Shown here one piece after another: positions 7,385 to 50,281 of a stretch of DNA of 64,000 nt. Within the stretch, counting starts at the first letter, position 1. Each line of letters opens with the position of its first letter. Below the pieces are notes generated by a model. It was not told the DNA's origin. It saw only the letters and a list, made by a program, of their open reading frames with translations, and made no database searches. The position numbers and the translations under genes are program-made. The stretch lies in NCBI GenBank assembly GCA_016191325.1, contig JACPOV010000008.1, positions 718,351 through 782,350 on the forward strand. Direction: 5' to 3'. Source of the DNA: Candidatus Babelota bacterium. GTDB lineage: Bacteria; Babelota; Babeliae; Babelales; JACPOV01.

Positions 7385-8815
7385 ATGAAACCATCAACAG
7401 TGCGAGTGCGTTTTGCACCTTCTCCTACCGGCCTTATGCATCTTGGAAGCGTTCGCATTGCACTTTTTAATTTTCTGTTTGCTCGCCATTATAACGGTAC
7501 CTTTATTTTGCGTATCGAAGATACCGATCTTGAGCGGAATTTTGATCCAGGTGGCGCGATCATTATGGAAGATCTGGGATGGCTTGGACTTTCTTATCAA
7601 GAAGGCCCTATTGTTGGCGGGCCCGATGCACCGTATGAACAATCAAAACGCGGCGCCCTTTATCAAGAAAAATTAACAGAACTTATTCAGAAAAATTCGG
7701 TCTATCGTTGTTTTTGCACCGTTGAAGAATTAGATCGCAAAAGAACTCGGCAAATAGCAAGCAAGCAGCCACCACGCTACGATAGAACGTGCTTAAAATT
7801 GACGCAAAAGCAACTAGATGAAAATCTTTTAAATAACGTCCCTTTTATTTGGCGCTATCAAATACCCGCCGGCACTATACAAATTACTGATCTTTCTCGC
7901 GGAAACGTTTCATTTGATCTGTCTAACTTTTCAGATTTTCCGCTTACACGAGAAGATGGCAGTTTCACTTTTTTGTTTGTTAACTGCGTTGACGATATTT
8001 TAATGAAAATTTCTCACGTCATTCGCGGCGAGGATCATCTTTCAAATACTGCAAATCAAGTTGTACTCTATCGTGCATTTGATAAAGAAGTGCCACTTTT
8101 TTGGCATATGCCGATTATTTGCAATCCTGAAGGAAAGAAACTTTCAAAAAGAGATTTTGGATTTTCCTTGCGCGATTTACGGCAAGCAGGATTTTTGCCT
8201 GAAGCAGTATGCAATTATTTAGCAATCATCGGCGGTTCATTTGAGCAAGAAGTAATGACTCTTCAAGAGCTTTCAAAGGCGATTGATTTTAAACATATTC
8301 ATACGGCAAGCACGATAAAATATGATCTTGAAAAACTTCGCTGGATGAATCATCAATGGATTATGCGCATGGATATCCCAACGCTCACCGATGCAATTTT
8401 GCCTTTTTTGATTGCCTCTTATCCGCAGGCTGCAAATCTTGATCGTATAACTATTGAAAAGCTAGTTTCATCAATTAGTAAAGAAATTCACACACTCAAA
8501 GATGCATCTACTGCTCTCCACTATTTCTTTGAATCACCTTTAATCACAAAAGAAAAATTGCTTGAACATATTTCGCCAGAAAATTTAGAAATTTGTTTAA
8601 CAATAATTCAAGAGAAAAAAAAGTTGCTGAGCAAACCGGAAGATTTTATCAAGGAAGTAAAGCAAGCTGCTGCAACTAAAAATGTGCCAACTAAAGCGCT
8701 CTTTGCTACCTTGCGTTTACTGATCGCTGGATCGGCGCATGGCGCATCGCTTCACGATATGATTACACTTCTTGGCGCCGATGAAATTACGAAACGGTTG
8801 TCGGTAAAAATATAG
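7385..8815 (+). CDS. gltX: glutamate--tRNA ligase
   Basis: VRVRFAPSPTGLMHLGSVRIALFNFLFAR (HIGH-type motif), ILRIEDTDLERN, KLSKRD (KMSKS-type). 476 aa. TAG stop. Confidence 0.95.
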   Translation: MKPSTVRVRFAPSPTGLMHLGSVRIALFNFLFARHYNGTFILRIEDTDLERNFDPGGAIIMEDLGWLGLSYQEGPIVGGPDAPYEQSKRGALYQEKLTELIQKNSVYRCFCTVEELDRKRTRQIASKQPPRYDRTCLKLTQKQLDENLLNNVPFIWRYQIPAGTIQITDLSRGNVSFDLSNFSDFPLTREDGSFTFLFVNCVDDILMKISHVIRGEDHLSNTANQVVLYRAFDKEVPLFWHMPIICNPEGKKLSKRDFGFSLRDLRQAGFLPEAVCNYLAIIGGSFEQEVMTLQELSKAIDFKHIHTASTIKYDLEKLRWMNHQWIMRMDIPTLTDAILPFLIASYPQAANLDRITIEKLVSSISKEIHTLKDASTALHYFFESPLITKEKLLEHISPENLEICLTIIQEKKKLLSKPEDFIKEVKQAAATKNVPTKALFATLRLLIAGSAHGASLHDMITLLGADEITKRLSVKI

Positions 8816-8826
8816 TGCATTAAAAA

Positions 8827-9019
8827 TTGCGCACCCTTCGATACAATTTTTAACGTAGTTAAAAATCACTCAGGGCGAGCGCAGTAGGTCTCAGTTTTAA
8901 ATTAGCTCCAGAATCGTTGATAAAATAAAAATTGTTCCCTTCAAAATTTGAAAAATTTCTCTCGCGCTCGTCCTGAGTGGTTTCGAGCGTAGCGAGAAAT
9001 TGTATCGAAGGATGCGCGA
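8827..9019. repeat. ~190-bp nested inverted-repeat (MITE/REP-like palindromic) element between convergent genes
   Basis: Outer arms 8829-8849 GCGCACCCTTCGATACAATTT and 8997-9017 AAATTGTATCGAAGGATGCGC match 20/21. Inner arms 8866-8882 and 8964-8980 match 15/17. Both internal spacers are exactly 16 nt. The centre is AT-rich, ~80 nt. Confidence 0.7.
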
Positions 9020-9029
9020 CGCGATGATT

Positions 9030-9284
9030 TCAAACAACAGCATCTGCTTGCATCAATCGATTAGGTAATTTTTTTAAATTACGTACGATCTCTTTTTCTT
9101 TAAATAATTCCATCAACTCGAGAAATGGTACTTCGTTCGCCACTGGAACAAAAAATTCAAAAATACTTTCTTGTTTATCAATCGTGCGTTCAAAAACCAA
9201 ATGTTCGTAACTGCGCAAAATCGCGGCAAACATCCAAACTCGCGAGCGCTCTATATGAGCTTGATAGTAAAAACAGTACGCCAT
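9030..9284 (-). CDS. small conserved-looking hypothetical protein (84 aa)
   Basis: ORF with a compact globular-looking sequence (WMFAAILRSYEHLVFERTIDKQESIFEFFVP...KKLPNRL). Family not recognised with confidence. Confidence 0.5.
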   Translation of the reverse strand: MAYCFYYQAHIERSRVWMFAAILRSYEHLVFERTIDKQESIFEFFVPVANEVPFLELMELFKEKEIVRNLKKLPNRLMQADAVV

Positions 9285-9383
9285 GCAAACACCTGTTTAG
9301 GAGAAAAAAAATCACAACCTTGTTTCCTAATGATCGTTTAGTATAGCATAAATGCACCGCTCATGCACACATCATCCAGCTGA

Positions 9384-9413
9384 TTGACGAACGTTATCTA
9401 AAGGTGCTATAAA
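9384..9413 (+). promoter_or_regulatory. candidate sigma70-type promoter for the downstream OMP gene
   Basis: TTGACG (9384-9389), an 18-nt spacer, then TATAAA (9408-9413), ~30 nt upstream of the ATG at 9445. Confidence 0.3.
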
Positions 9414-9444
9414 GGAAAAAGAAGCTTTGATTGAAAGGATAGTG

Positions 9445-10845
9445 ATGAAGAAAAAATTTATACCGGTGCTTTTGGCTGCCCTCGCCTTAGCTGTATGGCA
9501 TCGCACCAGTATGGGCATCACGATGCTCACCAAAAACGATCCTTACCCACTTTATACTACAGCCTATCCGTACCACTATCTCCTTTTTGGTGTAACTAAT
9601 TACTTTAAAGATATCACCGACTGCGTTAAAATTGATCGCGTCTCATTCCATGTTACCCCCTTTCATCAAAAAGCTAGCAGGGGCAGAGATTTTGAAGGTT
9701 GCATAAGATTTCTAGGAGATCTTGAAGGCCGCTGGAACATGCTCGGGCTTCTTTATGGCGCAGTGCCAACTGGCCAAAGTTTAGCAGGCACTCAAATCGG
9801 ATTTGCAAAACAACAAATTTTTCCTCCACTAGGGCCTAATGATACCGTCCCAGTAGAAAACGTATTGACCGATACAGGTTGTCATATTGGCTATTTTGCA
9901 GTACCACTCAAATATCGAAAAACCGGTGTTCGCTTTGAACTTGACGTCCAACCTTTTGAAGACTTTGGATTCACCATTCAAGCGGGACTCGCGGATATAA
10001 AACAAACACAAACCTGCCCATGCTGTGGCTTTATCGATCTTACCCCCACGGTAAGTTTAGATGATAGTATTTTCCCTGCTGCAGCTGTGCCTGTTATTGA
10101 ATCGCTTTTAATGTCTTGCACCGCCGCGACTCTCACCTTCAGCCAAATCGGGCTTGAAACATGCGACTTTGAAGAAGACTCTGTCGAAGATATGCGGTTC
10201 TTTGTTTGGTGGCGCCATGTATTTGAAGTAAATGCGAACAACTGTACTTATCCTTATTTTCTGTTTATTCCGTTTGTTCAGATTGAAGCAACTGCTCCTA
10301 TAGCCAAAACACAAAATCGACGAAAAGCGTTCGCGCTACCTTTTGGTAACGATGGCCACTCTTCGGTTGGGTTTACCGCAGGCTTCCATCTAGACTTTAA
10401 AGAAACAATCGAGATTGGGTTTTTTGGCGGTTACACAGCTTTTTCATCCAGAACCATTGATCTTTACAGATTACCAACGAGCCCCGTACAATCTGGCGTC
10501 TTTCCTTTTTCTACCACCGCGAAGGTACAACCGGGGCACAACAGCATATTTGGCGTACTTTTCCATGCATATCGTTTCCTTGAACGCCTCTCGTGCTGGG
10601 TCGAATACGACACCATTCATCATACTGAGGATAAAATAACAATCGAAAATCCGCCGGCTAATAACCCGTTTATTCCGCGGCAGCAAGAATGCCTTTCAAA
10701 ATGGCGAGTTCAAGTGCTCAATACAGCGTTTAATTATGAAATTTCACCTAATTTAACGCTTGGCCTTGCGGCGCAATGGCCAATCACACAAAGAAACGCG
10801 TACCGATCAACTACTCTTGCCGGTTCGCTCATTGCAACCTTCTGA
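9445..10845 (+). CDS. outer-membrane beta-barrel protein (porin/MOMP-like), Cys-containing
   Basis: Start moved to the ATG at 9445 (AAAGGA upstream). Signal peptide MKKKFIPVLLAALALAVW, alternating beta-strand-like pattern, C-terminal LAGSLIATF ending in F, and a CPCCGF motif. Confidence 0.65.
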   Translation: MKKKFIPVLLAALALAVWHRTSMGITMLTKNDPYPLYTTAYPYHYLLFGVTNYFKDITDCVKIDRVSFHVTPFHQKASRGRDFEGCIRFLGDLEGRWNMLGLLYGAVPTGQSLAGTQIGFAKQQIFPPLGPNDTVPVENVLTDTGCHIGYFAVPLKYRKTGVRFELDVQPFEDFGFTIQAGLADIKQTQTCPCCGFIDLTPTVSLDDSIFPAAAVPVIESLLMSCTAATLTFSQIGLETCDFEEDSVEDMRFFVWWRHVFEVNANNCTYPYFLFIPFVQIEATAPIAKTQNRRKAFALPFGNDGHSSVGFTAGFHLDFKETIEIGFFGGYTAFSSRTIDLYRLPTSPVQSGVFPFSTTAKVQPGHNSIFGVLFHAYRFLERLSCWVEYDTIHHTEDKITIENPPANNPFIPRQQECLSKWRVQVLNTAFNYEISPNLTLGLAAQWPITQRNAYRSTTLAGSLIATF

Positions 10846-10992
10846 TGTGATGTTTAAATAATACCTGTGGCTGCCTGCAAAAGAGCCGGCCTTACTAGAC
10901 ACGCCTGGCAAAAAGGGATATAGTTAAAGGCAGTTCTATAAACCTATTATTTACCCCGGCTGCGCTGCAGCTTGAAAGGATTGTGTTTCTCT

Positions 10993-11205
10993 ATGAGTAA
11001 GAGAAAAGCAAATATCGTTATCAACGTAAATGCAAACGTAGAAAAATCACTTAAGCAGCTTAAAAAGAAAATTGAGCGCGAAGGTGTTGTCCGAGATATG
11101 AAGCGATTAGGTTACTTTGAGCCGCTAAGCCAAAAAAGACGTAAACGCTTATTGCGCGCTATTAAGCAAAACTATATCCGCATGGCCTCTCAAAAGTTGA
11201 TTTGA
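10993..11205 (+). CDS. rpsU: 30S ribosomal protein bS21
   Basis: MSKRKANIVINVNANVEKSLKQLKKKIEREGVVRDMKRLGYFEPLSQKRRKRL matches the S21 pattern (VEKALR-FKRK-EKEG...R-R-YEKPS-KRK). The ATG at 10993 is preferred over the upstream TTG. Confidence 0.85.
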   Translation: MSKRKANIVINVNANVEKSLKQLKKKIEREGVVRDMKRLGYFEPLSQKRRKRLLRAIKQNYIRMASQKLI

Positions 11206-11216
11206 TCTCATAAGTC

Positions 11217-11594
11217 ATGGCCAACTTTGAATCCAAACGTGTACGCGATATAAAAAAAGCACAAAAAGAAAAATTGTTTTTTCGTGAAATATCGCAACTT
11301 TTTTTGCAAATGACGCTTGATGATAATCGCATCAGAGATATTCACGTAAACCGTGTCGAGCTTTCAGCTGATAAAAGTATGTGTTACATTTACTTTTACA
11401 CGCCAAAGGGCATTGAGGGCTTTAAAGAGAAGCTTGATATTTTGAAGCTCTACAAACCATCTTTGCGTAAAGCTATAGCAGCAAAAATTAAAGCTCGTTA
11501 TACGCCAGATCTTGTTTTTATGTTCGATGAACACTACGAAAAACAAGAAAAAATAGAACGGCTTTTTGACGAGATAAAAAAAACTGAGGAATAG
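11217..11594 (+). CDS. rbfA: ribosome-binding factor A
   Basis: 125 aa. KRVRDIKKAQKEKLFFREISQLF...IHVNRVELSADKSMCYIYFY...LRKAIAAKIKARYTPDLVFMFD follows the RbfA layout. Stop TAG at 11592-11594. Confidence 0.75.
   Translation: MANFESKRVRDIKKAQKEKLFFREISQLFLQMTLDDNRIRDIHVNRVELSADKSMCYIYFYTPKGIEGFKEKLDILKLYKPSLRKAIAAKIKARYTPDLVFMFDEHYEKQEKIERLFDEIKKTEE
11586..11590 (+). promoter_or_regulatory. Shine-Dalgarno (GAGGA) positioned for initiation at the ATC codon at 11598 of pilD
   Basis: GAGGA lies inside the last codons of rbfA, 7 nt upstream of ATC 11598-11600. There is no ATG/GTG/TTG in the pilD frame until 11829. Confidence 0.4.
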
Positions 11595-11597
11595 CTC

Positions 11598-12359
11598 ATC
11601 GAGCCATTACTTCTTCTGCCAATTTTTTTATGCTGGGGTTCATTCCTTAACGTTGCCGCTTATAGACTCATTCACGGCGGATCAATCATTTTTGGCCGCT
11701 CTTCATGCCCACATTGCCATCACATTCTTTCTTGGCCAGAACTCATTCCTGTTGTTTCGTGGTTTGCGCTGCGCGGAAAATGCTTACATTGCAAAAAACC
11801 GATTTCTTGGCTTTATCCATTCATTGAATTGCTGACAGCCTTTATATTTTATAGAATGGTAACTCAATTATCATCCACTTATTGGATCGCGTATTCGATT
11901 TTCTTTTCTGCATTAATTATTACTATTCGTACCGATATTGAAACAATGCTTATATCAAGATTTGTAAGCGCATTTCTCATTCCGGTAGGATTTTTGTTAA
12001 GTATTTTCGATCTATTGCCCATAACTTTTGTGCAAAGTTGTATTGGGGCAATCTCAGCGTATGTTTTTTTATACGGGATTGGCTGGCTCTATTATAAATT
12101 TACTCACCGCGTTGGCATGGGGCAAGGCGATGTCGAACTCATCGGTATGATTGGCGCTTTCTTAGGCGCTCAAGGCTGGTGGGCTTCGCTTATGCTCGCA
12201 TCTCTTGTCGGTTCATTTTCCGGTGCAATCATTCTCTTTGCGATTTCTGCAAGTAAAACTGAAAAAATCAAGCTTCCCTTCGGACCGTTTCTTGCTCTGG
12301 GCGCATTGTGCTATGTATTCTATGCACACTCTTTAATGAAACTATTTCTAGGCTTCTAA
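11598..12359 (+). CDS. pilD: prepilin peptidase (A24 family, PilD/GspO-like); start codon non-canonical or unresolved
   Basis: The frame opening at 11595 encodes LIEPLLLLPIFLCWGSFLNVAAYRLIHGGSIIFGRSSCPHCHHILSWPELIPVVSWFALRGKCLHCKKPISWLYPFIELLTAF. This carries GSFLNV and two CxxC pairs and continues into track ORF 11829..12359, which has the catalytic Asp regions IRTDIETM and GMGQGDVELIGMIG. Track ORF 11653..11835 is in the wrong frame. Confidence 0.85.
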   Translation: MEPLLLLPIFLCWGSFLNVAAYRLIHGGSIIFGRSSCPHCHHILSWPELIPVVSWFALRGKCLHCKKPISWLYPFIELLTAFIFYRMVTQLSSTYWIAYSIFFSALIITIRTDIETMLISRFVSAFLIPVGFLLSIFDLLPITFVQSCIGAISAYVFLYGIGWLYYKFTHRVGMGQGDVELIGMIGAFLGAQGWWASLMLASLVGSFSGAIILFAISASKTEKIKLPFGPFLALGALCYVFYAHSLMKLFLGF

Positions 12360-12890
12360 TTTTCTTAGTAAGTAATTTGGAATCGGCGGTATTTCTAATG
12401 CAAGCAGCTTTGGTGCGGCAAGAACTCGTTCATATTTAAAAAAATGTTTTGATTTTTCTTGGATTGTCAGCATATTCTTAGCAATTAACGAATATCCATA
12501 GAGTCGCCAATCTGTACGATTAACTTCAGATGTGAGTGCATTGGCTATAAGATCTAATGCTTCCAATGGCTTCTTGTGATACGTAAGTAAACTCATCGCT
12601 GCAAGGCGAAACGCACTGGTAAAATGCGGATCGAGTTTTTTCATAAGCATCATTCCATTTACAATTTCGTTTGCACCGCAGCGAGCAAAATCTTTTTGCA
12701 AAAACTGAAACCAATAAAAATCGGAAGCCATTAATCTCCAAGATCCTAAAAATTGGGCATATTCATAATGAGAGATTGAATGCCCGTTGCCCAATTTGGA
12801 TTCTTGCAATAAGACATTCAAAATAATCGAGAGTAGATAAACAACTACGATAAAAATGCAAACGAAATAATTTTCACGCCAAATCGTCAT
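12348..12890 (-). CDS. membrane-anchored helical-repeat (TPR-like) protein downstream of the pilin gene, hypothetical
   Basis: 180-aa ORF with an N-terminal TM (YFVCIFIVVVYLLSIILNVLL). Overlaps the pilin stop by 17 nt, suggesting co-translation. Confidence 0.55.
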   Translation of the reverse strand: MTIWRENYFVCIFIVVVYLLSIILNVLLQESKLGNGHSISHYEYAQFLGSWRLMASDFYWFQFLQKDFARCGANEIVNGMMLMKKLDPHFTSAFRLAAMSLLTYHKKPLEALDLIANALTSEVNRTDWRLYGYSLIAKNMLTIQEKSKHFFKYERVLAAPKLLALEIPPIPNYLLRKLEA

Positions 12891-13362
12891 GCGTAATTTT
12901 TATTTCATTGCGATGATCAACGGTGAGTCGATCGTCGGTACCATCCCCATCAATATCACCAATTGCTGCAGCTAGAAAAGTATTGGCATCAGCTTTGGTG
13001 TCGCCAAGGCTTGAACCACTCGCGCCCAATTTTCCAGTAAAACAACAATGACCTTCTTGGCCACTAAATCCATAGGTATAATAAAACCGTTCGTTTGCGC
13101 CGCCGCCTGAATATCCCTCCGGCTGCCATCCTGCGCCGTCTTTGCCAATAAGTTGCGTTGTATATTTTCCGTTTTCTGCCCAATACGCTTTTTCTGCTAA
13201 ATAAAGCGTTCCTAAATTCATATATGCTTCGGTCCGTTTTGCTTTTGCTAAAAATCTAAAAAAGCTTGGCATAGAAACCATCGATAGAAACGCGACGATC
13301 GCCACAACGATCATTAATTCAATTAAAGTAAATCCGCGACACTTTTGCGTGATCTTTTTCAT
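12874..13362 (-). CDS. type IV pilin / pseudopilin with class III signal peptide
   Basis: MKKITQKCRGFTLIELMIVVAIVAFLSM carries the prepilin cleavage/N-methylation motif (G|FTLIE). Strong SD (GGGGGGAGAA). The C-terminus has the Asp-rich loop GDIDGDGTDD. Confidence 0.9.
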   Translation of the reverse strand: MKKITQKCRGFTLIELMIVVAIVAFLSMVSMPSFFRFLAKAKRTEAYMNLGTLYLAEKAYWAENGKYTTQLIGKDGAGWQPEGYSGGGANERFYYTYGFSGQEGHCCFTGKLGASGSSLGDTKADANTFLAAAIGDIDGDGTDDRLTVDHRNEIKITHDDLA

Positions 13363-13593: not shown

Positions 13594-13998
13594 ATGAATT
13601 TTTTTTTTAAGCTCATTATAGCGGCAATAATAACGAACTCGCTTCTCTGCCAAAACTATCTAGATAACATTCCAAAATTTAGTCTTAAACAAACCGGCCT
13701 TATTAAAATGTCGATCGGTTCATTGATTATGTTTTACGGCGGCGCACAGTTTGGCATACCGGTTCCTTTTTTTTCTGCGAATCGATTTGAATCATTTTCT
13801 ACTCTTGTAAGAAGTGGAATTTTAGCAGGCACCGGTTTTACGCTTTTTGAAAGTGGCCTGAGTAACTACCATCAAGAAACAAACGTTGCTCTTGAGCCGC
13901 GTTCAATAATCCATCATTGGGAAGATCATTTTAAGAAAGCCGTGAAATACAGCATGCTCATAACTGCTGTTCCTCTTGCTCGTTTTTTAAATAAATAA
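13594..13998 (+). CDS. small membrane protein, hypothetical
   Basis: 134 aa. GAGGTG SD. Signal/TM N-terminus and 2-3 further hydrophobic segments. Layout resembles the next ORF (both have NIP shortly after the signal region). Confidence 0.55.
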   Translation: MNFFFKLIIAAIITNSLLCQNYLDNIPKFSLKQTGLIKMSIGSLIMFYGGAQFGIPVPFFSANRFESFSTLVRSGILAGTGFTLFESGLSNYHQETNVALEPRSIIHHWEDHFKKAVKYSMLITAVPLARFLNK

Positions 13999-14082
13999 TC
14001 GGCATACCGGAAAAAGACTATTGCTAATGGCGATTTTAAAAAAAGCTGTTATGATAATCTAAAGTAGTTGTCATTAAGCGAA

Positions 14083-14502
14083 ATGGATGCCATGAAAATT
14101 TCTACAAAGAGCCCGGCTCTCGCCTTGGCCTTTCTCATATTTTCAGCAAACGCTGGCGTATTGAACAATATACCGGTAGAAAAAACGTCAGTTGAACAGC
14201 CCAAAAGACAATTCGAGAAAATATCACGCAAATCACAAATGGCTCAATTTACTCTCGGGGCAGGCTTGGTTCTTATCTCCGCTTTTCTTATTGATACGAA
14301 TAAAAACAACTCACCCACTGAGGAAATTGTTCGGTTAGCAACAGGCCTACCAATATTTGGCATCGGATGCGAATTGGCCTATCAAAGCTTATCTGATCAT
14401 CGATTTACTACCGCTAAAGATTATTTCTATGGAGCAGCAGGACACACCGCGTTCGGTACGCTGAGCGTTCTCTGCATCAAATTCTATATTTCTAAGAAAT
14501 AA
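14083..14502 (+). CDS. small membrane protein, hypothetical (possible paralog of 13594..13998)
   Basis: Signal peptide KISTKSPALALAFLIFSANA plus further TM segments. Start ambiguous between 14083 and 14092. Confidence 0.5.
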   Translation: MDAMKISTKSPALALAFLIFSANAGVLNNIPVEKTSVEQPKRQFEKISRKSQMAQFTLGAGLVLISAFLIDTNKNNSPTEEIVRLATGLPIFGIGCELAYQSLSDHRFTTAKDYFYGAAGHTAFGTLSVLCIKFYISKK

Positions 14503-14736: not shown

Positions 14737-16161
14737 ATGATAAACCAAAATAAGCAGACGCAGGCGCCTAAGGGTGCAATATCTGGGTCTCAGAGAAACT
14801 ACAACGAAGTTGTGGAGTTTTTGGATGCTCGTTGGTCAGAACAACGAACAGAAAAGAACCTGGCAGCGGTCAAAGCGCTCGATAAAGCTTTAGGACATCC
14901 CAGCAAAAACGTTTCTACTGTTCTTGTTGCCGGAACCAATGGTAAAGGGCTCACGATCAACTTTGCAACGAGTTTGCTCAAAGAAGAAGGTTTAAAAGTA
15001 GGCGGTCTTTATAGCCCGCACGTTCTCACGTATAACGAACGCATCTCATTGAATAACGAAACAATTTCAAACAAAGCTTTTACTGAAGTTGCTAACGAAG
15101 TTATTAATGCTGCCGCAATCAATGATATCAAAGCTGATTCGCTCGATATCCTCAATATGATGGCACTTCTTTATTTTAAACAACAGAAAGTCGACCTTGC
15201 TTTATGCGAGTTATCTGACAGTTCTGTGAACCACCCACTCTCTCTAACAACGCCACAAGTCGTTGCGATTACGCGCGTTACGCAAGATAGCTCAACAATC
15301 GTTGATGAAAAAACGCTTGAACAAGAAGTTTTAAACTTAATGAAATTTGCTAAAGAAACAACCTACGTCGTTTCAGCAGATCAAAGCAAAGCTCATCTAC
15401 AATTAATGCTTGATGAAACAAAGCGTATTGGCGGCCGCTGGTCGATGCCAATTCGTAAGCTCGCACCACTTCGCTACCCATTTGAGCAGCTTTTTGGTCG
15501 CTGCGCAGCACTTGCTGAACGCATTGCACAAATTCATATCGATCACTTTGCCAATAAAGATTCACTCATTCCTGAAAATAGCTTACTAGCTAAGCAAAAA
15601 GGTCAACGTGGCCGTCCAACATTGGAAAAGAAACGTTTTGATGAATTGAATCCAAAACGTACTATCGAACAATTCTGGAAAGAAACAAATACAACACTTC
15701 CTGCTCACTTTGAACTGCTTGATAAAGAAAAGCCAACCATCTTGCTTGATAATGCACGAAATATCGATGCATTAAAAAACTTGCTTCTTGGTATTCGCTT
15801 GTTGCATTATCAACGTCCGCTCAAAGGGCTCACCTTTGTTTTTGGCTGTGATAAAAACAGACTTCATGTTGATGAGTTCTTGCGTTTGCTTCGTTATTTT
15901 TCAAAGAAAAACTCAGCAAACGTTATTTTCTGCCCAATATCTCATGCGGTTCCTGGTATTCAAACCGAATCATGGGATGTCGAGCAAATTACTAATGATG
16001 TTAAAAGCTTGAAAATTAAAGCTCGTTCTGCAAAAAACTTTGAAGAAGCATTCGATGCTGCTAAAAAATCGGTTGATGAAAGACACGGTCTCGTGGTTAT
16101 TACCGGTTCGCCATCGATTATTGCAGAATATTGGCATCACAAGGGAATTAAAAAAATCTAA
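14737..16161 (+). CDS. folC: folylpolyglutamate synthase/dihydrofolate synthase-like Mur-ligase family protein (divergent)
   Basis: VLVAGTNGKGLT P-loop and YSPHVLTYNERISLNNETIS are typical of FolC. The usual DGAHN motif reads DNARN here. GGAGAA SD. Confidence 0.65.
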   Translation: MINQNKQTQAPKGAISGSQRNYNEVVEFLDARWSEQRTEKNLAAVKALDKALGHPSKNVSTVLVAGTNGKGLTINFATSLLKEEGLKVGGLYSPHVLTYNERISLNNETISNKAFTEVANEVINAAAINDIKADSLDILNMMALLYFKQQKVDLALCELSDSSVNHPLSLTTPQVVAITRVTQDSSTIVDEKTLEQEVLNLMKFAKETTYVVSADQSKAHLQLMLDETKRIGGRWSMPIRKLAPLRYPFEQLFGRCAALAERIAQIHIDHFANKDSLIPENSLLAKQKGQRGRPTLEKKRFDELNPKRTIEQFWKETNTTLPAHFELLDKEKPTILLDNARNIDALKNLLLGIRLLHYQRPLKGLTFVFGCDKNRLHVDEFLRLLRYFSKKNSANVIFCPISHAVPGIQTESWDVEQITNDVKSLKIKARSAKNFEEAFDAAKKSVDERHGLVVITGSPSIIAEYWHHKGIKKI

Positions 16162-16164: not shown

Positions 16165-16428
16165 ATGATTACTTTTTCTCAAAGCATTTTTGCAATTGCT
16201 GCGGGAATTATTGGTGGAGCAATTTATGGGCTTTTGTTCTTGCGAGCAAAGGCCCTTTGCCTTATTAAACCTCATTTTACCCCCATTTTAACCTTTCTCC
16301 GCCTTACGGGTTTAGCAATTTTTTTATTTTATGTATTGCGTAGCTCCATTTCTCATTCTATACTCCTAATAGTTAGCTTTTTTTCGGCATTCTGGTTCGT
16401 CATTATTAAGCACTCCCGGCAGCGTTAA
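16165..16428 (+). CDS. small 3-TM protein preceding atpB, AtpR/AtpI-like
   Basis: 87 aa, starting 3 nt after the folC stop. Helices IFAIAAGIIGGAIYGLLFL, ILTFLRLTGLAIFLFYVL (intramembrane Arg) and ILLIVSFFSAFWFVII resemble the N-ATPase AtpR layout. Assignment rests on pattern and position only. Confidence 0.4.
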   Translation: MITFSQSIFAIAAGIIGGAIYGLLFLRAKALCLIKPHFTPILTFLRLTGLAIFLFYVLRSSISHSILLIVSFFSAFWFVIIKHSRQR

Positions 16429-16471
16429 GAACTACGCGCTTATTGAGGGATCAATCTAAGGGCATGCGCTC

Positions 16472-17209
16472 ATGGAAGCGTTTGAAAATGGACAATCACT
16501 TTGGAATCCACTTGGTTGGTTGGGAATAGAAAACGAACTGTTAAAGTTAAACGGTTCGACTATTATCAATACCTGGATTGTTCTTTTTGTTCTTATAACC
16601 CTCTTGATTCTCGCTCGTATCTTTATCGCAAAAAGTACAATTTTAGCGCACCTCATAAAGAAATCGGTACAAAGTCTTATCGATTTGATAGAGCAAAACA
16701 TGGGAAAATTTATTTATTCCCACTTTTTGATGGTTGCTGCACTTTTCCTCTTCATTCTTGGCTGCAATTGGGTGATTCTTTTACCATGGACAAAAGAACC
16801 TACTACCGACATTAATACAACACTTGCGCTCGCTGTAATAGCATTTTTCTATAAAGAAATTGCCTGCATACGCGCTCGTGGATGGTGGGGTTATTTAGAA
16901 GAATTTCTAGAACCGTTTTTTATTATGGCGCCCATCAATGTAATCGGCCATTTTTCAAAAATCATCTCTCTTTCGTTTCGTCTTTTTGGCAATATTTTTG
17001 GCAGCTCAATTATCATGGATTTGTACACGCACGTTATTTCTACATTTTGGCTTACGGAACTGCTTGGCCTTCTTTCTGGGCTTAATATCGTTGTCGTTCT
17101 TTTCTTTGGGCTCTTTGAAGGGCTCATTCAAGCATTTGTTTTCTCAATGCTCACCCTTACTTATATTGGTTTAGCGGTGCAAAAAGATCATCACGGCGAA
17201 AGTAACTAA
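16472..17209 (+). CDS. atpB: F-type ATP synthase subunit a
   Basis: 245 aa. Contains the conserved ISLSFRLFGNIFG (essential Arg) and EGLIQAFVFSMLTLTYI helices. Confidence 0.85.
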   Translation: MEAFENGQSLWNPLGWLGIENELLKLNGSTIINTWIVLFVLITLLILARIFIAKSTILAHLIKKSVQSLIDLIEQNMGKFIYSHFLMVAALFLFILGCNWVILLPWTKEPTTDINTTLALAVIAFFYKEIACIRARGWWGYLEEFLEPFFIMAPINVIGHFSKIISLSFRLFGNIFGSSIIMDLYTHVISTFWLTELLGLLSGLNIVVVLFFGLFEGLIQAFVFSMLTLTYIGLAVQKDHHGESN

Positions 17210-18159
17210 TGCTTAATCCATCAATTATACATTACTCGAGCTTAGCAAGCGTTATTGCACTCACCAGCTTGGGAGCAAGTTTGGGCGGTGCGCGCGCAAG
17301 TAAGGCGGCGGTTGAAGCAATAAATATCCAACCAGCATCAAAAGCAGAGATCACAAAGGTTACGATTGTTGGACTCGCCTTAATCGAAACTGCTGCAATT
17401 TTGGCACTTATTTTAATTTTACTTTTATTATTCAAAATTAAAGGATTGCCAACTCCCGCAATGGCCTACGCAGAGCTTGGCATTGCTGCAGGAATGGGCA
17501 TAACAGGATTTATTAGCGGATTGGTTTCAGCGGCCCCTGTTGTACAAACATGTTTTGCAATTGCGCGCCAACCTTTTTTTTCGCAACAGTTGATGAATCT
17601 TATGATCATTACCCAAACAATTATTCAAACGCCATTGATTTTTGTATTTCTTATTTCACTTTTTGTAACATTTCAAAGCACTCCTGAACTTACACTCAAA
17701 TCGGGAATTATTTTAATGTCGGCCGGAATTTGTATGGGGCTTGGATCTGTCGGTCCATCAATTGGTTTAGGAAGATTTGCCGAAACCGCGTGTAGAAGCG
17801 TCGGCATCAATAAAAAAGCATATAGTTATATTTTGCCGTTCACGCTCATGAGCGGAGCGTTTATTGAAACGCCTCTTATTTTTGCTTTTCTCGTTTCTCT
17901 CATTTTGCTTGGCAATATTTCAAGCGCCGATGCTTTTATTGGAATCCGTTCGATTTGTGCAGCGCTTTGCATCGGCGTTGGCACGTTCATGCCCGGTATA
18001 AGTTCAAGCAAAACCGCAAGTGCCGCATGCGAGCAAATGGCATTTCACCAAACAAGCTATTCGCGTGTTTCGCAAGTGAGTATGTTTGCTCAAGGAATAA
18101 TCGACGCGGCTGCCGTCTATGCTTTACTGACCGCCCTGTTTATAGTATTTCTTAAATAA
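17209..18159 (+). CDS. atpE: fused four-hairpin F-type ATP synthase c subunit (8 predicted TM helices)
   Basis: 316 aa. TAATG overlap with atpB. Four c-like helix-loop-helix units with ~80-aa period. Unit 1, SKAAVEAINIQPASKAEITKVTIVGLALIETAAILALILILL, aligns well to canonical c subunits. Ion-site residues are E60, Q140, E220, D299. Loop motifs are NIQP, ARQP, GINKK, FHQTS. Confidence 0.8.
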   Translation: MLNPSIIHYSSLASVIALTSLGASLGGARASKAAVEAINIQPASKAEITKVTIVGLALIETAAILALILILLLLFKIKGLPTPAMAYAELGIAAGMGITGFISGLVSAAPVVQTCFAIARQPFFSQQLMNLMIITQTIIQTPLIFVFLISLFVTFQSTPELTLKSGIILMSAGICMGLGSVGPSIGLGRFAETACRSVGINKKAYSYILPFTLMSGAFIETPLIFAFLVSLILLGNISSADAFIGIRSICAALCIGVGTFMPGISSSKTASAACEQMAFHQTSYSRVSQVSMFAQGIIDAAAVYALLTALFIVFLK

Positions 18160-18163
18160 GTAG

Positions 18164-18195
18164 CCCCACAGACCGCTGCGCGGTCGTTTGTGGGG
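18164..18195 (+). terminator. GC-rich stem-loop directly after the c4 gene (no U-tract)
   Basis: CCCCACAGACCGC ... GCGGTC GTT TGTGGGG: 13 bp in two segments with a 3-nt bulge and a 3-nt loop, followed by ACCCCAGAAG rather than a T run. Confidence 0.4.
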
Positions 18196-26124: not shown

Positions 26125-27405
26125 ATGCACGGCCTCAAAAAACATATCCTCTCAATAATAGTAGTGACGAAATTTTACTGTATATCGGCAATGGAACCGC
26201 AACCTGCACCAGAAATTGTTTCCTATGCTCAAGAATTCGCGCAGGATGAGATTCGCCCAGAGCTTCTTGAGCAATTGCTTGCTACGTGCCCCAAACTGAA
26301 GCAATTGGTTTTCCGTTTACAAAATCCTCTCCGCTATGGCAGAACAATCCCTACTAAACTTTTGCTCGTTGGCCCTCCTGGAGTTGGCAAAACTACTATT
26401 GCAAAAGGAATTGCTTCACTCATTAATCGCCCCTATATATTTCTTCGAGCATCGTTACTCACAAATGAATATAAAAATTCTGGGCCGCAAAATTTAGCGC
26501 GCGAAATAATACCTATTTTACAAAGCGGGCAACCTTATGTAATCATCGTGGATGAACTGCATGCGCTCACTGAAAATTATAAAAAAGACCACAATGCAGA
26601 TCCAGGAACTGCAGAAGCATTATGGTCGATTCTCGATGAATGCGCCAAAAATCCACAAGTTCTTTTTATTGGTACCACCAATGATGCTGTAAAACTTCCA
26701 GAACCGCTCAAAACAAGATTTGCAAACGGGATCATTGAAATACCACTGCCAAATCTTGAACAGCGAACTAATATTATTAAATATTATTTACACAACATCT
26801 CTTACACATTCGACAGATCATATTTTACAACTCTGGCAAAACAAACGAATCAACTTTCGGGTCGCAATCTTGAGCAACTAGTTTCTGATGCGATTACGTA
26901 CGCTTTAGATCGAGAAGAAATTCCGATGATTAGAAAAAAAGATTTTGAGCGCGCTTTGAAGGATATGAATGAAAATCAAAGTTCATTGGCATTGTTGGGC
27001 TGGGAAAAACATAAGCAATTTTTAAAAGATAACGCCACAACTATCGCCACGATTATTGGTATAGGTGTAAGCCTTGTTGGGCTCGCAATGCAATACTGGT
27101 CGATGCAGCGACAAATTTCCCTTCAGTTAGTTGCGCAAAACGCGCAAATAGACCAAAATAAAAAATTTCTCGATCATCAAGTAAAAGTGCAAAATGAGCA
27201 ATTTACTATCGAACAGGGAAACAAAGAAAAAAAAGCAAACCAGTCTGCGTTCATACAAAAAACTGGTGCCGGCGCGGGTATAGTTACAGGAGCATTTACA
27301 TTAGCTGCATCATTCCCACCCCTTTGGCCAGTAGCTTACGTAATTGGTGGTAGTGGAGCATTGATGGCTGCTGATGCATTTGATCAGAATTGGAGCAAGA
27401 TGTGA
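26125..27405 (+). CDS. membrane-anchored classical-clade AAA+ ATPase
   Basis: N-terminal hydrophobic anchor (ILSIIVVTKFYCISA), Walker A LLLVGPPGVGKTT, Walker B YVIIVDELH, sensor-1 region FIGTTN, PEPLKTRF. C-terminal TM TIATIIGIGVSLVGLAMQYW and Gly-rich helix GAGAGIVTGAFTLAASF. GGGAGA SD. Confidence 0.8.
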   Translation: MHGLKKHILSIIVVTKFYCISAMEPQPAPEIVSYAQEFAQDEIRPELLEQLLATCPKLKQLVFRLQNPLRYGRTIPTKLLLVGPPGVGKTTIAKGIASLINRPYIFLRASLLTNEYKNSGPQNLAREIIPILQSGQPYVIIVDELHALTENYKKDHNADPGTAEALWSILDECAKNPQVLFIGTTNDAVKLPEPLKTRFANGIIEIPLPNLEQRTNIIKYYLHNISYTFDRSYFTTLAKQTNQLSGRNLEQLVSDAITYALDREEIPMIRKKDFERALKDMNENQSSLALLGWEKHKQFLKDNATTIATIIGIGVSLVGLAMQYWSMQRQISLQLVAQNAQIDQNKKFLDHQVKVQNEQFTIEQGNKEKKANQSAFIQKTGAGAGIVTGAFTLAASFPPLWPVAYVIGGSGALMAADAFDQNWSKM

Positions 27406-30368
27406 TTTTTTCCAAAGCACGAAAAAAACTCTCTAAGAAAATCTTATTCGCTGCATTCGTTTCATTCAGCTTTTCAACATTGCAATCTATGGCAATACCG
27501 TGGCAAACCATTGCACCGACTCTTGCAAATTTAAGCTACGGATGCGGAGCTTTAGTTAATAAACTCTTAAACACACAGCGCCATAGCATTCCATCTCCAG
27601 CTCAACAAATACCAATTACTCGCGCGCCTCTAATTTTAAGCGTTAGGCAATCCTCGATCGCCCCAATTAGATCATTATGCATAAAATCGCCAATCGAAAC
27701 CTACAGCAGAGCGCTTCATTGTAAATTGCAACAGAATTTACCTACAGCGCTTCTCAAAAACCCCGCTTCGACCGCAACGCCAAAACTACGATTGGGTCAC
27801 CTGCCCTCAGCTCGTGGCAAAAGCGAAATTTATAAAACGAAAACTGCATCATCGCTCCTAAAATTGCCTCAAGTCAGGCCAGATTTGCAGTATGTAAAAC
27901 CTAAAAGCGCTTGGGAATCTTTTATCGATAAATTAACAATAACAGTCGTTCCACATGATATTGATTATCGCACATATGGCGCAGTCTCCGATCTGCATCG
28001 AGCTACCGTCGAACAGCAATCCCTCATCAACCAATACCAGCAAAATGGCATGTTCCATGTGCTAGAACAGAACGTTGCAAAATTTCAATCAATCTTATTG
28101 GATCTCTCGCGATCAGATCCTCAAGGCGTTATCGCGCGCAATAAATTTTCTGAATTGCAAGCACCTTTGCCACTCGCCCAGCATTATCTTAATGATTTTA
28201 AAACATGCATAAAAATGTTTGCTTTTGATAAAGCAGATACCATAAAACAAAACCTTTCGAAAGTTGATTCATTTTATATAGCAGCTCATTGTCAATCATT
28301 TATACAACGAAGCTTCGGCGCTCAAGCAGCAGCCGATTTTGTAAAAATGGGATGCGAACAAAAAATTCCTGGGTACCTTGAACTCAGCGGGCAAGTAAAA
28401 TATGGAAATATTTTTTCTCGAGCGCGTCGATGGTTTGCAGGATGTAAAACTGGATTCCGTTCAAATGAATTTAATCCGCATCATATTCTTGAAAATAGCT
28501 TTAATCAAAAGATAACGCACGTACGAACATTATGCGAAAACCAAAAATTCCATTTAGCTCATGCTTATATTCAGCAATCGTCAGGGGAAAGCAAGCAAAG
28601 TTTGCTGGGTGTTTATGGGGAATATTTTAAACAAAGCTATAATCAACTTGGTATCGAGCGCTGTTATGAAAATGATCCTTTTTTTGCGCAAATTTCATCC
28701 CAACTTAAATATAGTAGCGTACCCAGCGCAGGCCTCAATGATGTTTTTAAATCACGCCACGATATGTTCAATGCCATTAAGCAAACATGCGCTATCCCTA
28801 ACAACGCTGACGCGTTCAGCAATTCTTTAATGTGGCATCTAGTTGATCAATGCGGAAATAACGCAACTCCAAAGCAGATGGTGAGCGATTTAGCTGTTCT
28901 GTGCAAAGATAGCGCAGCCAAAACAATTTCTGGAGCGTATCATCATTTTTTTGATGGCAACGGGATCTTTAAGCTCTTAAATTATGATAAATCTAACTTT
29001 GCGCATCTTTCTTTTCATGAATCGATTCACCATGAACGCAATACTCACACACGAATCTTCTTAAATGATCTTATACAGATTCCGTGTACAACCAAGCAAC
29101 AGTTAGAGGCTTTTTCAAGCGCCCTAAATCACCTAAACCAATCATGCAAAAATCCTTCCCTAGCTACGCAACATATGACGTTCGCGCAAGACATTGCCAA
29201 TGCGCTCTCAAATCCTGATTACGACCAAAAAATTATTTCCTGCGGCGATTTTAGTAAATATGATATGCGCCTTCTTAAACTTGGATCCGAAATAATTACC
29301 GCTAAGAATAATACGAATGTTCAGCTTGCTGACATGCAAGAGCTGAATGCTGCATTGGCGCAACTAAACGATGCTGGAATCGCACGCTTGAATGGAGATT
29401 ATTATCTTTCAGAACACCTAACCAACAAAACCTTAGGATCGCTCGATATTGAATCAAGCAGTTTTTGGCAGCAAGAAAAAACGAGCTTTATAAAACCGAT
29501 ATCCGCTGATTTAAAAACATCATTTTTCAATATTCAATCTCCCAAAACTCAAGAAGCTGCCCCTTCTAAAAATAGTTTTGCAAACGGTTTTGCGGCCGCC
29601 GTGGGAGCTCGAGCATTGCAGCAGGCTTTTTCTGGAAATTCTTTCGCGCCAGCACCTTCAGCTAATTATTCACAGACGCAAACAGATGCCGCTAGTGCGT
29701 GCCCGCAATGTGCAAACGATGCAGACGCAATTCATGAGTATTTTGACTATTTAAATCAAGGCGGCCAACCTGTTGCCATTTCTGGCGGACAGGCTGATGC
29801 TGCTCAAAAGGCAAAAGAAGACGATTGCAATGAAGCGCCGACAAAATTATCACTTTTAGAACAAATAGAATTAGCAAGAAAAGCAAATGATTATTTCCGG
29901 GAACAAATTGCGAAATATGAAGCTGAAATCGTTGAGGCGATAAAGAAAAAGCTCAAAGAAAATAATTTAAATTATGAACCAACGATTCACGTTAAAGATA
30001 TTAATATGAAACACATCATGTTTACAGAATCGAGAGGCAAAAACCCAGTCGGATTACATTCAAAACGCTGGAATCCTGAACGAATAGTTACGGCAAGCGT
30101 CCGCCCTTGCAAATTCAATACAAGCCATGGGAAAGTTCAGCTCAATTGCATCACTAAACCTTCAACCTTTTTCCCCGATAGCTGGAATGAATTCATGATT
30201 GTTGATAAAATTTTTGAAGCATTAAAGAATATTATTAACGTAAATACAATAAGCAGTAAATTAATAATAAAAGGAATTACGCAAGAACAAATCTATATTG
30301 AATTACATCTTGAAAGTGGAGGTTTAATTTCAACGGCCTATCCATCATTTAAGGATTTATGCATTTAG
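27390..30368 (+). CDS. large secreted protein with C-terminal EndoU-like RNase (polymorphic-toxin type) domain
   Basis: Starts at TTG 27390 or GTG 27402, the latter overlapping the AAA stop as GTGA. Signal peptide KKILFAAFVSFSFSTLQSMA. The last ~128 aa (nt 29982-30365) carry KHIMFTE, VGLHSKRW, KPSTFFPDSWNEFMIVDKIFEALKN and LISTAYP. These parallel the EndoU His/His/Lys motifs and the bacterial EndoU hallmarks. Confidence 0.65.
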   Translation: MEQDVIFSKARKKLSKKILFAAFVSFSFSTLQSMAIPWQTIAPTLANLSYGCGALVNKLLNTQRHSIPSPAQQIPITRAPLILSVRQSSIAPIRSLCIKSPIETYSRALHCKLQQNLPTALLKNPASTATPKLRLGHLPSARGKSEIYKTKTASSLLKLPQVRPDLQYVKPKSAWESFIDKLTITVVPHDIDYRTYGAVSDLHRATVEQQSLINQYQQNGMFHVLEQNVAKFQSILLDLSRSDPQGVIARNKFSELQAPLPLAQHYLNDFKTCIKMFAFDKADTIKQNLSKVDSFYIAAHCQSFIQRSFGAQAAADFVKMGCEQKIPGYLELSGQVKYGNIFSRARRWFAGCKTGFRSNEFNPHHILENSFNQKITHVRTLCENQKFHLAHAYIQQSSGESKQSLLGVYGEYFKQSYNQLGIERCYENDPFFAQISSQLKYSSVPSAGLNDVFKSRHDMFNAIKQTCAIPNNADAFSNSLMWHLVDQCGNNATPKQMVSDLAVLCKDSAAKTISGAYHHFFDGNGIFKLLNYDKSNFAHLSFHESIHHERNTHTRIFLNDLIQIPCTTKQQLEAFSSALNHLNQSCKNPSLATQHMTFAQDIANALSNPDYDQKIISCGDFSKYDMRLLKLGSEIITAKNNTNVQLADMQELNAALAQLNDAGIARLNGDYYLSEHLTNKTLGSLDIESSSFWQQEKTSFIKPISADLKTSFFNIQSPKTQEAAPSKNSFANGFAAAVGARALQQAFSGNSFAPAPSANYSQTQTDAASACPQCANDADAIHEYFDYLNQGGQPVAISGGQADAAQKAKEDDCNEAPTKLSLLEQIELARKANDYFREQIAKYEAEIVEAIKKKLKENNLNYEPTIHVKDINMKHIMFTESRGKNPVGLHSKRWNPERIVTASVRPCKFNTSHGKVQLNCITKPSTFFPDSWNEFMIVDKIFEALKNIINVNTISSKLIIKGITQEQIYIELHLESGGLISTAYPSFKDLCI

Positions 30369-30757
30369 TAAAAATAAAACTTACCCCTTATTATCATATT
30401 GCATACGCGACGTCTGAGCCATTAAAGCTTCTGGGCTTTTTCTTAGAAGACTTTGGATCTGAAATTGGAATTGAGATTTTACGCTCAATTGTCATTGATA
30501 AATTACAAGACTGTACGTCGGGCAATAAAACATCACTATATACATTAAAAAATGGAAATTTGTGTATTACTATATTATTTCCAGACAAGAAAGATCCTGT
30601 ACGGTTAGAAATAACACCTGAAACGTTGCTTCAGGTTACAAAATTATATTTGGAAGCAGAAAAAAAACGACCAGCCGAAATTATTATTAAATTGGATCAT
30701 TCAATGGAAAATCCAACGATAGAAACTATACTATATTGTCCTCTTAATAAGGCCTAA
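30359..30757 (+). CDS. putative cognate immunity protein (132 aa, cytoplasmic)
   Basis: The ATG overlaps the toxin ORF end by 10 nt. No signal peptide. Small acidic protein. The assignment rests on position only. Confidence 0.4.
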   Translation: MHLVKIKLTPYYHIAYATSEPLKLLGFFLEDFGSEIGIEILRSIVIDKLQDCTSGNKTSLYTLKNGNLCITILFPDKKDPVRLEITPETLLQVTKLYLEAEKKRPAEIIIKLDHSMENPTIETILYCPLNKA

Positions 30758-30760
30758 AAT

Positions 30761-31201
30761 ATGAAATATTACGCACTGCTCAGTATTCTGTTATTTTTTT
30801 CCGCAGATGAGGCACGCTGTTCTAATGATTCAAATAAAGCACATTCTAACGATACCGTTTCTTTTCTAACTTCCAAAAATTGCTGCGCTGCTCTTTTAGG
30901 ATCGATGGCATTGGCATACTGCTATTACCTTTATAAATCAATACTATCACCAAAGCCACAAAAAAAATTAGCTCAAGAAACCGCAGATTCGCGTTTATAC
31001 AAGAAAAAGATCGAGGAGCAACAGCTGAAGCGCTTAAAAATAATTTTGCCAATGCTTTGCGTAATGTGGATTTTAAACTCGATTATTTTTAGTTACAATC
31101 CTTATTACAATCCAATCTATATTCCCCCAACCCATCTATATCAATATAGATACCCATATCAGTATTCATACTCATATCCATATATTTGGACATTCTACTG
31201 A
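30761..31201 (+). CDS. small membrane protein with Tyr/Pro-rich C-terminal tail, hypothetical
   Basis: Signal-like N-terminus and two TM segments. The tail is YNPYYNPIYIPPTHLYQYRYPYQYSYSYPYIWTFY. Confidence 0.5.
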   Translation: MKYYALLSILLFFSADEARCSNDSNKAHSNDTVSFLTSKNCCAALLGSMALAYCYYLYKSILSPKPQKKLAQETADSRLYKKKIEEQQLKRLKIILPMLCVMWILNSIIFSYNPYYNPIYIPPTHLYQYRYPYQYSYSYPYIWTFY

Positions 31202-40700: not shown

Positions 40701-40702
40701 CG

Positions 40703-50255: not shown

Positions 50256-50281
50256 ACCTTTTTCTTAACAGCACAACGACC

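Follow-up and report, generated by a model that had tools for sequence, protein, structure and literature searches.

A quadruplicated c subunit with a predicted silent ion-binding site in the split F-type ATP synthase genes of Dependentiae

A 64-kb stretch of the genome of a Candidatus Babelota bacterium (contig JACPOV010000008.1; hereafter the window, whose own positions are used throughout) carries a compact gene series made up of a FolC-like gene, an open reading frame (ORF) for a small membrane protein with three transmembrane (TM) segments, atpB for subunit a of the ATP synthase, and a fused gene for the rotor subunit c, which we refer to as c4. The c4 product is an F-type c subunit of four hairpins, one of which has a silent ion-binding site, and this form is conserved throughout one phylum, the Dependentiae. 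Taken as a whole, the locus very probably encodes the ion-translocating membrane part of a full F-type ATP synthase/ATPase whose remaining genes lie elsewhere on the chromosome. The gene arrangement carries the fragmentation of a known split pattern further, and the four-hairpin subunit with its silent site is the part worth following.

The profile search revealed four PF00137 stretches in the c4 product, which, at 316 amino acids (aa) and four hairpins, does not conform to the single-hairpin c subunit of ~ 70-90 aa per polypeptide. In the AlphaFold2 (AF2) model, with a predicted local distance difference test score (pLDDT) of 96.1 and a predicted template modelling score (pTM) of 0.91, the helical segments correspond to eight TM helices. 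The ion-binding positions of the successive hairpins are E60, Q140, E220 and D299, with no carboxylate in hairpin 2. Searches yielded 115 full-length homologues of 309-331 aa, giving 116 sequences together with the window copy, with identity down to 33%. All named homologues belong to Dependentiae, Babeliales or TM6, and the nearest one, 97% identical, comes from a metagenome-assembled genome (MAG) of Candidatus Babeliales (GCA_036260945.1), which served as the closest relative in the comparisons below.

Across the 116 sequences, the ion-binding position is E in 115 and D in one for hairpin 1 (position 60), E in 115 and Q in one for hairpin 3 (position 220), and D in 87, E in 27 and G in two for hairpin 4 (position 299). 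At position 140 of hairpin 2, Q was found in 95 sequences, M in seven, E in 13 and G in one, so that the carboxylate is absent there in 103 of 116. Read as a pattern, the four sites are most often EQED (75 sequences), followed by EQEE (17), EEEE (9), EMED (7) and EEED (4), and the forms with all four carboxylates were found only among the homologues farthest from the window c4. The R120-Q121-P122 loop of hairpin 2 is invariant in all sequences, the loop of hairpin 1 is (I/R)QP across homologues (IQP in the window c4), and hairpins 3 and 4 carry different, conserved loops. The RQP loop is the motif that couples c subunits to gamma and epsilon, corresponding to R41-Q42-P43 in Escherichia coli c.

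The helix-1 positions that supply Na+ ligands are occupied by G27, S107, L187 and S266 in the window c4; the lack of Gln or Glu there in every hairpin points to H+ as the transported ion. In other lineages, Q or E is present at the ligand position of hairpin 1. The EEEE and EEED variants combine Q at this position with RQP in both loops, and these forms may represent the ancestral state, possibly coupled to Na+. Comparison of the hairpin profiles with one another gave the top scores to hairpins 3 and 4 (101) and hairpins 1 and 4 (84), which gives no order of duplication. Purifying selection is evident against the closest relative, with a ratio of non-synonymous to synonymous substitution rates (dN/dS) of 0.027 for c4, 0.038 for subunit a, 0.070 for the small ORF and 0.012 for the FolC-like gene; for c4 and a, the underlying changes are 61-85 synonymous versus 10-11 non-synonymous. 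Literature searches on these topics found no description of a four-hairpin or quadruplicated c subunit, nor of a Dependentiae c-ring.

The best match to c4 in the Protein Data Bank (PDB) is Acetobacterium woodii c1 (4bem, chain J), both by sequence (E 3.8e-9) and by fold (E 4.7e-5, root mean square deviation 1.8 Å). Like c4, it is an F-type c of fused hairpins, in one of which Gln replaces the ion-binding Glu. Unlike c4, it has two hairpins, spans half of c4 (query-normalised template modelling score 0.45) and keeps one of two sites, compared with three of four in c4; moreover, the A. woodii ring mixes c1 with the single-hairpin c2/c3, whereas c4 is apparently the only c gene beside atpB. The structural matches ranked 2 to 40 are V-type proteolipids, each spanning half of c4, and no solved chain with four hairpins was present among the matches. 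The V/A-type proteolipids (Enterococcus hirae NtpK, 2bl2; yeast and mammalian Vo c) likewise show tandem hairpin fusion and carboxylate loss together with a lower ion/ATP ratio, which we propose below for c4. The c subunit of Methanocaldococcus jannaschii has three hairpins and that of Methanopyrus kandleri 13. In contrast to the V/A-type enzymes, which have V/A-type catalytic and stator subunits, the Dependentiae a, gamma and remaining subunits are of the F-type, and no V-type subunits are present.

The atpB product is an F-type subunit a, the stator bearing the ion half-channels. It matches PF00119 well above the cut-off (E 8e-36, 124.3 bits versus 33.9) and just passes the generic F-type a model TIGR01131 (103.5 versus 102.6). 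When it was aligned to spinach chloroplast subunit a (6fkf, chain a), the SLSFRLFGNI stretch, including the essential Arg, was identical, and LIQAFVF was also aligned.

These data raise the question of where the other subunits are encoded. When the window was searched by tblastn with the alpha, beta, gamma, delta, epsilon and b subunits of E. coli and Listeria, as well as with the gamma of Dependentiae, no match was obtained; the same run recovered subunit a as a positive control, and the AtpD query was validated against an annotated atpD, to which it is 99.8% identical. In Pfam scans, 56 ORFs of the window gave no ATP-synt_B, OSCP or DE match, and no atp families were found in the 10 kb past each window end on a matching Logan contig (~ 84 kb covered in all), with the caveat that b, delta and epsilon diverge fast and that 26 of the 50 ORFs in the further Pfam scans had no Pfam match of any kind. 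The first-pass annotation, made from the letters of the window, had noted the absence of other atp genes from the 64 kb, and the searches with their control bear this out. Two ORFs upstream of the FolC-like gene (13594-13998 and 14068-14502) were considered as candidates for b and rejected, having no Pfam match and lacking the layout of an N-terminal TM segment followed by a long charged helix.

The same isolation of the a/c4 pair is seen in relatives. Eighty-five c4 loci, 80 of them from metagenomes, were examined, and the linkage of the FolC-like gene, the small ORF, a and c4 proved to be conserved: subunit a lies directly upstream of c4 in 61 of the 61 loci with enough upstream sequence, and the FolC-like gene lies upstream of a/c4 in all 44 loci with at least 2.6 kb of upstream sequence. 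Neither beta nor gamma was found near c4 in any of the 85 loci, 45 of which have at least 3 kb and 20 at least 8 kb of downstream sequence. With the Babela massiliensis gamma as the query (Pagnier et al. 2015, supplement), 665 gamma homologues were recovered, and gamma is present in 112 Dependentiae-type genome records. In 80 gamma loci from species-representative genomes, among them the completely sequenced Vermiphilus pyriformis and strain Noda2021, searches by tblastn did not detect any of alpha, beta, delta, epsilon, b, a and c4 within 10 kb of gamma. Taken together, the c4-locus and gamma-locus surveys indicate that the atp genes are distributed over at least three loci in this phylum, with the a/c4 unit always alone.

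In two relatives, gamma and a/c4 can be placed on one contig. In OY969428.1 (contig_55632, 1,733,188 bp), a/c4 lies at ~ 646 kb and gamma at ~ 1,700 kb, ~ 1.05 Mb apart; in contig_10402 (CAWFXL010000001.1, 1,604,641 bp), c4 lies at ~ 1,444 kb and gamma at ~ 780 kb, ~ 0.66 Mb apart. Similarly, in Babela, a/c4 is located at 297-299 kb and a solitary gamma at 491 kb (491091-491933). In the first half of the Babela annotation, a, c4 and gamma are the only atp genes, which places the others at further loci. The gamma gene (atpG) lies next to TsaE and an NYN/YacP (PIN-like) gene in both Babela and OY969428.1.

In the published COG table (Pagnier et al. 2015), AtpA, D, G, C, H, F and B each have a count of one in B. 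massiliensis, V-type subunits have a count of zero, and TM6SC1 has alpha, beta, gamma, delta, epsilon and a, without b and without any V-type subunit. Three papers, including Yeoh et al. 2015 and Deeg et al. 2019, credit Dependentiae with an ATP synthase. The count of two for COG0636 in Babela was considered as a sign of a second c gene and rejected in view of the absence of V-type subunits and the single a; it more likely reflects the repeated c domains. The presence of gamma on the same contig, the Babela COG table and the dN/dS of 0.012-0.070 in all four genes thus argue for a split F1Fo and not for an orphan membrane sector. Between the two explanations offered by the first-pass annotation, split loci or an a/c rotor-stator pair without F1, it is the former that the contigs with atpG, the COG table and the papers describing an ATP synthase support.

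Stand-alone a/c units are known, for example, in Deltaproteobacteria, and the atp genes are split in other ways in Alphaproteobacteria, Epsilonproteobacteria and Cyanobacteria (Niu et al. 2017, PMC5709465). As in these split operons, a and c stay together, apart from the F1 and stalk genes, and the Dependentiae enzyme is very probably still a full F1Fo. In the published annotation (Pagnier et al. 2015), a and c of Babela have their top BLAST hits in Deltaproteobacteria. The Dependentiae arrangement differs from the known a/c split operons in three respects: gamma is solitary (in Babela and in 80 of the 80 gamma loci), the a/c unit is joined to genes for a FolC-like product and for a small protein with an Arg, and c is a four-hairpin fusion.

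The coordinates of the locus and of other features of the window are presented in Table 1. The gene order proposed in the first-pass annotation is correct, and the ORFs lie at exactly the positions it gave. The TAA stop codon of the FolC-like gene (16159-16161) is followed by a 3-nt spacer and the ATG of the small ORF at 16165; a gap of 43 nt separates the small ORF from atpB; and the atpB stop codon and the c4 start codon overlap in TAATG (17207-17211). Since the order is fixed phylum-wide and the junctions are tight, the genes from the FolC-like gene to c4 would be expected to form a single transcription unit, in which a and c4 are translationally coupled. The FolC-like gene may thus be co-transcribed with the small ORF, a and c4.

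Table 1 Positions of the a/c4 locus and of other features in the window
Feature	Position	Strand	Description
FolC-like gene	14737-16161	+	474 aa
Small membrane-protein ORF	16165-16428	+	87 aa, three predicted TM segments
atpB (F-type subunit a)	16472-17209	+	245 aa; PF00119, TIGR01131
c4 (fused c gene)	17209-18159	+	316 aa, four PF00137 stretches
GC-rich hairpin	18164-18195	+	5 nt past the c4 stop codon
Conserved upstream block	7385-13362		GltX to opposite-strand type IV pilin
AAA ATPase to small ORFs	26125-31776	+	Resembles a polymorphic toxin with immunity genes
WD40 protein	37172-38872	-	566 aa, beta-propeller
RtcB RNA ligase and archease	39192-41146	-	RNA-repair pair
ORF	49475-49918		Abuts/overlaps RNase P RNA
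RNase P RNA	49917-50258		Bacterial class A, 252 bits
PASTA-domain protein ORF	50207-50980		Abuts/overlaps RNase P RNA

The product of the first gene is best called FolC-like, that is, a putative member of the folylpolyglutamate synthase/Mur-ligase family. It falls below the cut-off of the folC model TIGR01499 (133.3 bits versus 162.65) and slightly exceeds that of Mur_ligase_C (28.6 versus 28.4); the P-loop GTNGKG is present, and the Babela orthologue, gene_640, is annotated as FolC (COG0285). Further upstream, the window contains a block conserved phylum-wide, as observed in four loci and in Babela, which consists of GltX, two unknown genes, S21, RbfA, a prepilin peptidase and, on the opposite strand, a type IV pilin.

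Downstream of c4, the GC-rich hairpin reported in the first-pass annotation is real: its folding energy is -22.2 kcal/mol (z -3.4 versus shuffles), and one of 200 shuffles folds equally well. It is retained with three substitutions in the closest relative, in which the spacer downstream of it is not conserved. The terminator scan did not call it, and the absence of a U-tract speaks against a canonical intrinsic terminator; the hairpin may lie where the transcript ends or may lend the RNA stability. For the GT4 glycosyltransferase gene that follows, the mechanical ORF begins with GTG at 18190, within the hairpin. Gene callers applied to the identical Logan contig gave a protein of 379 aa, equivalent to a start at ATG 18254, which is the more likely start and would leave the hairpin intergenic.

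How might such an enzyme work? A ring assembled from two, three or four c4 polypeptides would have 8, 12 or 16 hairpins. Gamma and epsilon would be bound by hairpins 1 and 2 through their (I/R)QP and RQP loops, respectively, E60, E220 and D299 would carry ions past the Arg of subunit a, and hairpin 2, with Q140, would remain silent, giving three ions per four hairpins and reducing the ion/ATP ratio from n to 0.75 n. Such a lower ratio, as in V-type ATPases and in the A. woodii hybrid ring, would increase the attainable gradient. The remaining parts would be supplied from elsewhere, gamma alone from a second locus and alpha, beta, delta, epsilon and b from one or more others.

The direction of operation can be approached through the metabolism of these bacteria. 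Dependentiae have no respiratory or electron transport chain and import host ATP via ATP/ADP translocases, and a reverse running of their ATP synthase, that is, hydrolysis-driven pumping, has been proposed (Yeoh et al. 2015, Deeg et al. 2019). Given the missing respiratory chain and the import of ATP, the enzyme would hydrolyse ATP to build a membrane potential, and its most likely role is that of an ATP-driven ion (proton) pump with a lowered ion/ATP ratio. It is unlikely that the split F1Fo works mainly as an ATP synthase on a gradient built by a pyrophosphatase or present in a host compartment. Babela and TM6SC1 do encode a membrane pyrophosphatase (COG3808), both enzymes have been named as possible gradient makers (Yeoh et al. 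2015), and a passage in PMC9171764 states that ATP synthases with V-type c subunits still make ATP. However, the lack of an electron transport chain and the ATP/ADP translocases that are present speak against this role, both published analyses favour pumping, and with one of four sites lost the ion/ATP ratio falls, a disadvantage for synthesis at a low driving force.

A more far-reaching proposal is put forward here tentatively, as something we consider possible, with slightly more doubt than conviction: an F-type enzyme evolved V-type gearing, with a ring composed only of c4, each copy with one dead site, and became a dedicated pump in an energy parasite supplied with ATP by its host, with a lineage-specific, remotely AtpR-like Arg/Trp protein assisting assembly and the EEEE and EEED forms as the ancestral state.

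Several observations weigh against the reading of the locus as part of a split, pump-like F1Fo with a silent site. The silent site is not shared by all lineages, since in 13 of the 116 c4 sequences each of the four hairpins retains its carboxylate. The relatives in which gamma was seen on the same contig have a c4 with 41-42% identity to that of the window, and gamma was not shown in this way for the window strain or the 97% relative; for the latter (GCA_036260945.1), no gamma was present among the 120 protein matches or the 80 loci listed. Dependentiae alpha and beta are known solely through their entries for Babela and TM6SC1 in the published COG table and through statements in papers, and delta, epsilon and b solely through that table. 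The membrane pyrophosphatase in these genomes could build a gradient and so allow ATP synthesis, and we infer the ring stoichiometry, the ion species and the operating direction alike. Regarding co-transcription, the count of promoter-like sequences is under chance expectation and the hairpin has no U-tract.

Could the a/c4 pair instead have been kept without F1, as a passive or gated ion-conducting module? The empty ~ 84 kb around the locus, the lack of any F1 or stalk gene beside c4 in all 85 loci and the fact that Dependentiae alpha and beta genes were not directly retrieved from any genome are what such an orphan Fo would predict. Nevertheless, this explanation, the second of the two in the first-pass annotation, is very improbable: gamma is found on c4 contigs in two genomes and in 112 Dependentiae-type genome records, the COG table lists alpha, beta, gamma, delta and epsilon for both Babela and TM6SC1, the invariant RQP is the F1-coupling motif of c, all four genes are under purifying selection, and an uncoupled Fo would dissipate the membrane potential. 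An orphan rotor-stator pair would have been the most striking reading, but a wrong one; as an arrangement, the locus is an ordinary split operon.

Another important question is whether the locus derives from an N-type ATPase, since the first-pass annotation had compared it with the R-B-E core of an N-type operon. The similarity centres on the small protein encoded upstream of atpB. A hydropathy profile shows three hydrophobic segments, and the family alignment revealed six invariant residues (Y21, L23, R46, L58, I66 and W77). R46, in the FLRL motif of TM2, is the sole invariant Arg; R59 is frequent, not invariant, and TM3 lacks an Arg but has the invariant Trp. Of 55 intervals between the FolC-like gene and a across Dependentiae, at least 49 and probably 52 contain a corresponding ORF, 81-118 aa in length, the Babela counterpart being gene_639 (84 aa). 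Gene callers skipped this gene on the contigs of three relatives, despite its phylum-wide conservation and the purifying selection acting on it.

AtpR has been defined by three TM segments, two of them with a conserved Arg, and has been proposed to aid c-ring assembly like AtpI (Dibrova et al. 2010). The small protein shares with AtpR (PF12966, TIGR03165; ~ 85-110 aa) the three TM segments, an Arg within a TM helix and the location of the gene directly upstream of atpB. It differs from AtpR in having one invariant Arg, the position of the second being occupied, by eye, by what is apparently the invariant Trp, in belonging to an F-type and not an N-type enzyme, and in matching neither PF12966 nor NCBIfam. 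No Pfam or NCBIfam match was obtained for the window protein, and three Dependentiae small proteins gave no Pfam match, including PF12966, up to E 10, whereas three bona fide AtpR from plasmid N-ATPase operons matched PF12966 with E 5e-9 to 3e-21. A word-index protein search with the small ORF gave no match, and a full HMMER search gave only 11 short unannotated matches, one of them a low-complexity artefact. When 53 small ORFs were compared with four AtpR sequences by hhalign, the score was 20.9 and the probability 8%, compared with control scores of 7.3-10.7 (20 column shuffles), 11.7 (alignment reversed), 14.7 (AtpQ) and 14.5 (AtpI); co-linear motifs were GxxxGxxY/F in TM1 and LRL in TM2. 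Therefore, the claimed resemblance to AtpR stands as an analogy, in the three TM segments and the intramembrane Arg, while the missing PF12966 match and the low hhalign values leave homology no more than weakly suggested; the protein can be described as AtpR-like in architecture and position. AtpI (UncI, PF03899) occupies the same place upstream of atpB and has the same proposed role in c-ring assembly. It is longer (126-132 aa) and shows no sequence or profile similarity to the small protein, which has no PF03899 match and, against AtpI of E. coli and Listeria, reached an hhalign probability of 0.7% (score 14.5). The small Arg-bearing protein would most likely help to assemble the c-ring, the role proposed for AtpI and AtpR.

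The origin of the locus as a detached N-ATPase core, in which atpR-atpB-atpE parted from atpDC and atpFAG, is nonetheless hardly credible. In its favour are the small protein with its intramembrane Arg just upstream of atpB, as atpR in the order atpDCQRBEFAG, and the hhalign score to AtpR, which exceeds all controls. Against it, subunit a falls far below the N-type model TIGR03306 (82.5 versus 302.1), having passed the generic F-type one, and c4 falls below the N-type c model TIGR03322 (76.5 versus 130.85) and scores higher with generic F-type models. The N-type gene order is not found, since atpD and atpC are missing upstream, atpF, atpA and atpG are missing downstream, and unrelated genes follow c4. 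The window c4 does not have the full Na+ ligand set of N-type c, as no hairpin has the helix-1 Gln or Glu, and the small protein has one conserved Arg instead of two and no PF12966 match. N-ATPases are without delta and always occur beside a normal enzyme (Dibrova et al. 2010); the relative Babela has one AtpH (delta), a single AtpB and no V-type subunits, hence no second ATPase.

Finally, a decaying remnant of a former atp operon, to which the reduced, host-dependent genome and the fragmented operon might point and which the first-pass annotation had mentioned, can be dismissed as scarcely conceivable with intact reading frames, dN/dS of 0.027 (c4) and 0.038 (a) within the 0.012-0.070 range of the four genes, an invariant RQP loop, and catalytic residues kept in 116 sequences down to 33% identity.

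The other content of the window fits the lineage, with a type IV pilin and prepilin peptidase, BamA, MurG, PBP1, RtcB with archease, a WD40 protein and many ORFs without a family (Table 1). An RNase P RNA is abutted or overlapped by two ORFs, and the overlap implies that the true start of the PASTA-domain gene is probably downstream of 50258. An AAA ATPase gene is followed by one for a 992-aa protein with a weak C-terminal EndoU match (E 2e-4) and then by three small ORFs without a family, a layout that resembles that of a polymorphic toxin with immunity genes. The RtcB RNA ligase (E 7.5e-174) adjoins its activator archease, forming an RNA-repair pair in a reduced, host-dependent genome. The top matches of the WD40 beta-propeller are eukaryotic-type propeller families, and this protein fits the host-interaction repertoire reported for Dependentiae. 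Outside the window, the 1-Mb E. coli record CP061233.1, which is classed as a plasmid, contains the chromosomal atp operon, in which atpA is unlisted; the stretch 4520-6061 translates with 11 stop codons and is either a pseudogene or an assembly error.

For annotation, the consequence is that lone Fo genes in Dependentiae MAGs should not be counted as an incomplete or absent ATP synthase, and that the small three-TM gene is often missed by gene finders. For the enzyme itself, c4 allows only rings in which the number of hairpins is a multiple of four, and if the proposed V-type gearing is true, three c4 copies would match the three-fold symmetry of F1. A change in the ion/ATP ratio is thought to be the step that separates synthases from V-type pumps. 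The c4 series, with the site lost in most sequences and all four kept in a few, is a natural study of such a change, and if the EEEE and EEED forms are indeed the ancestral state, the loss of the site could be traced step by step inside one phylum.

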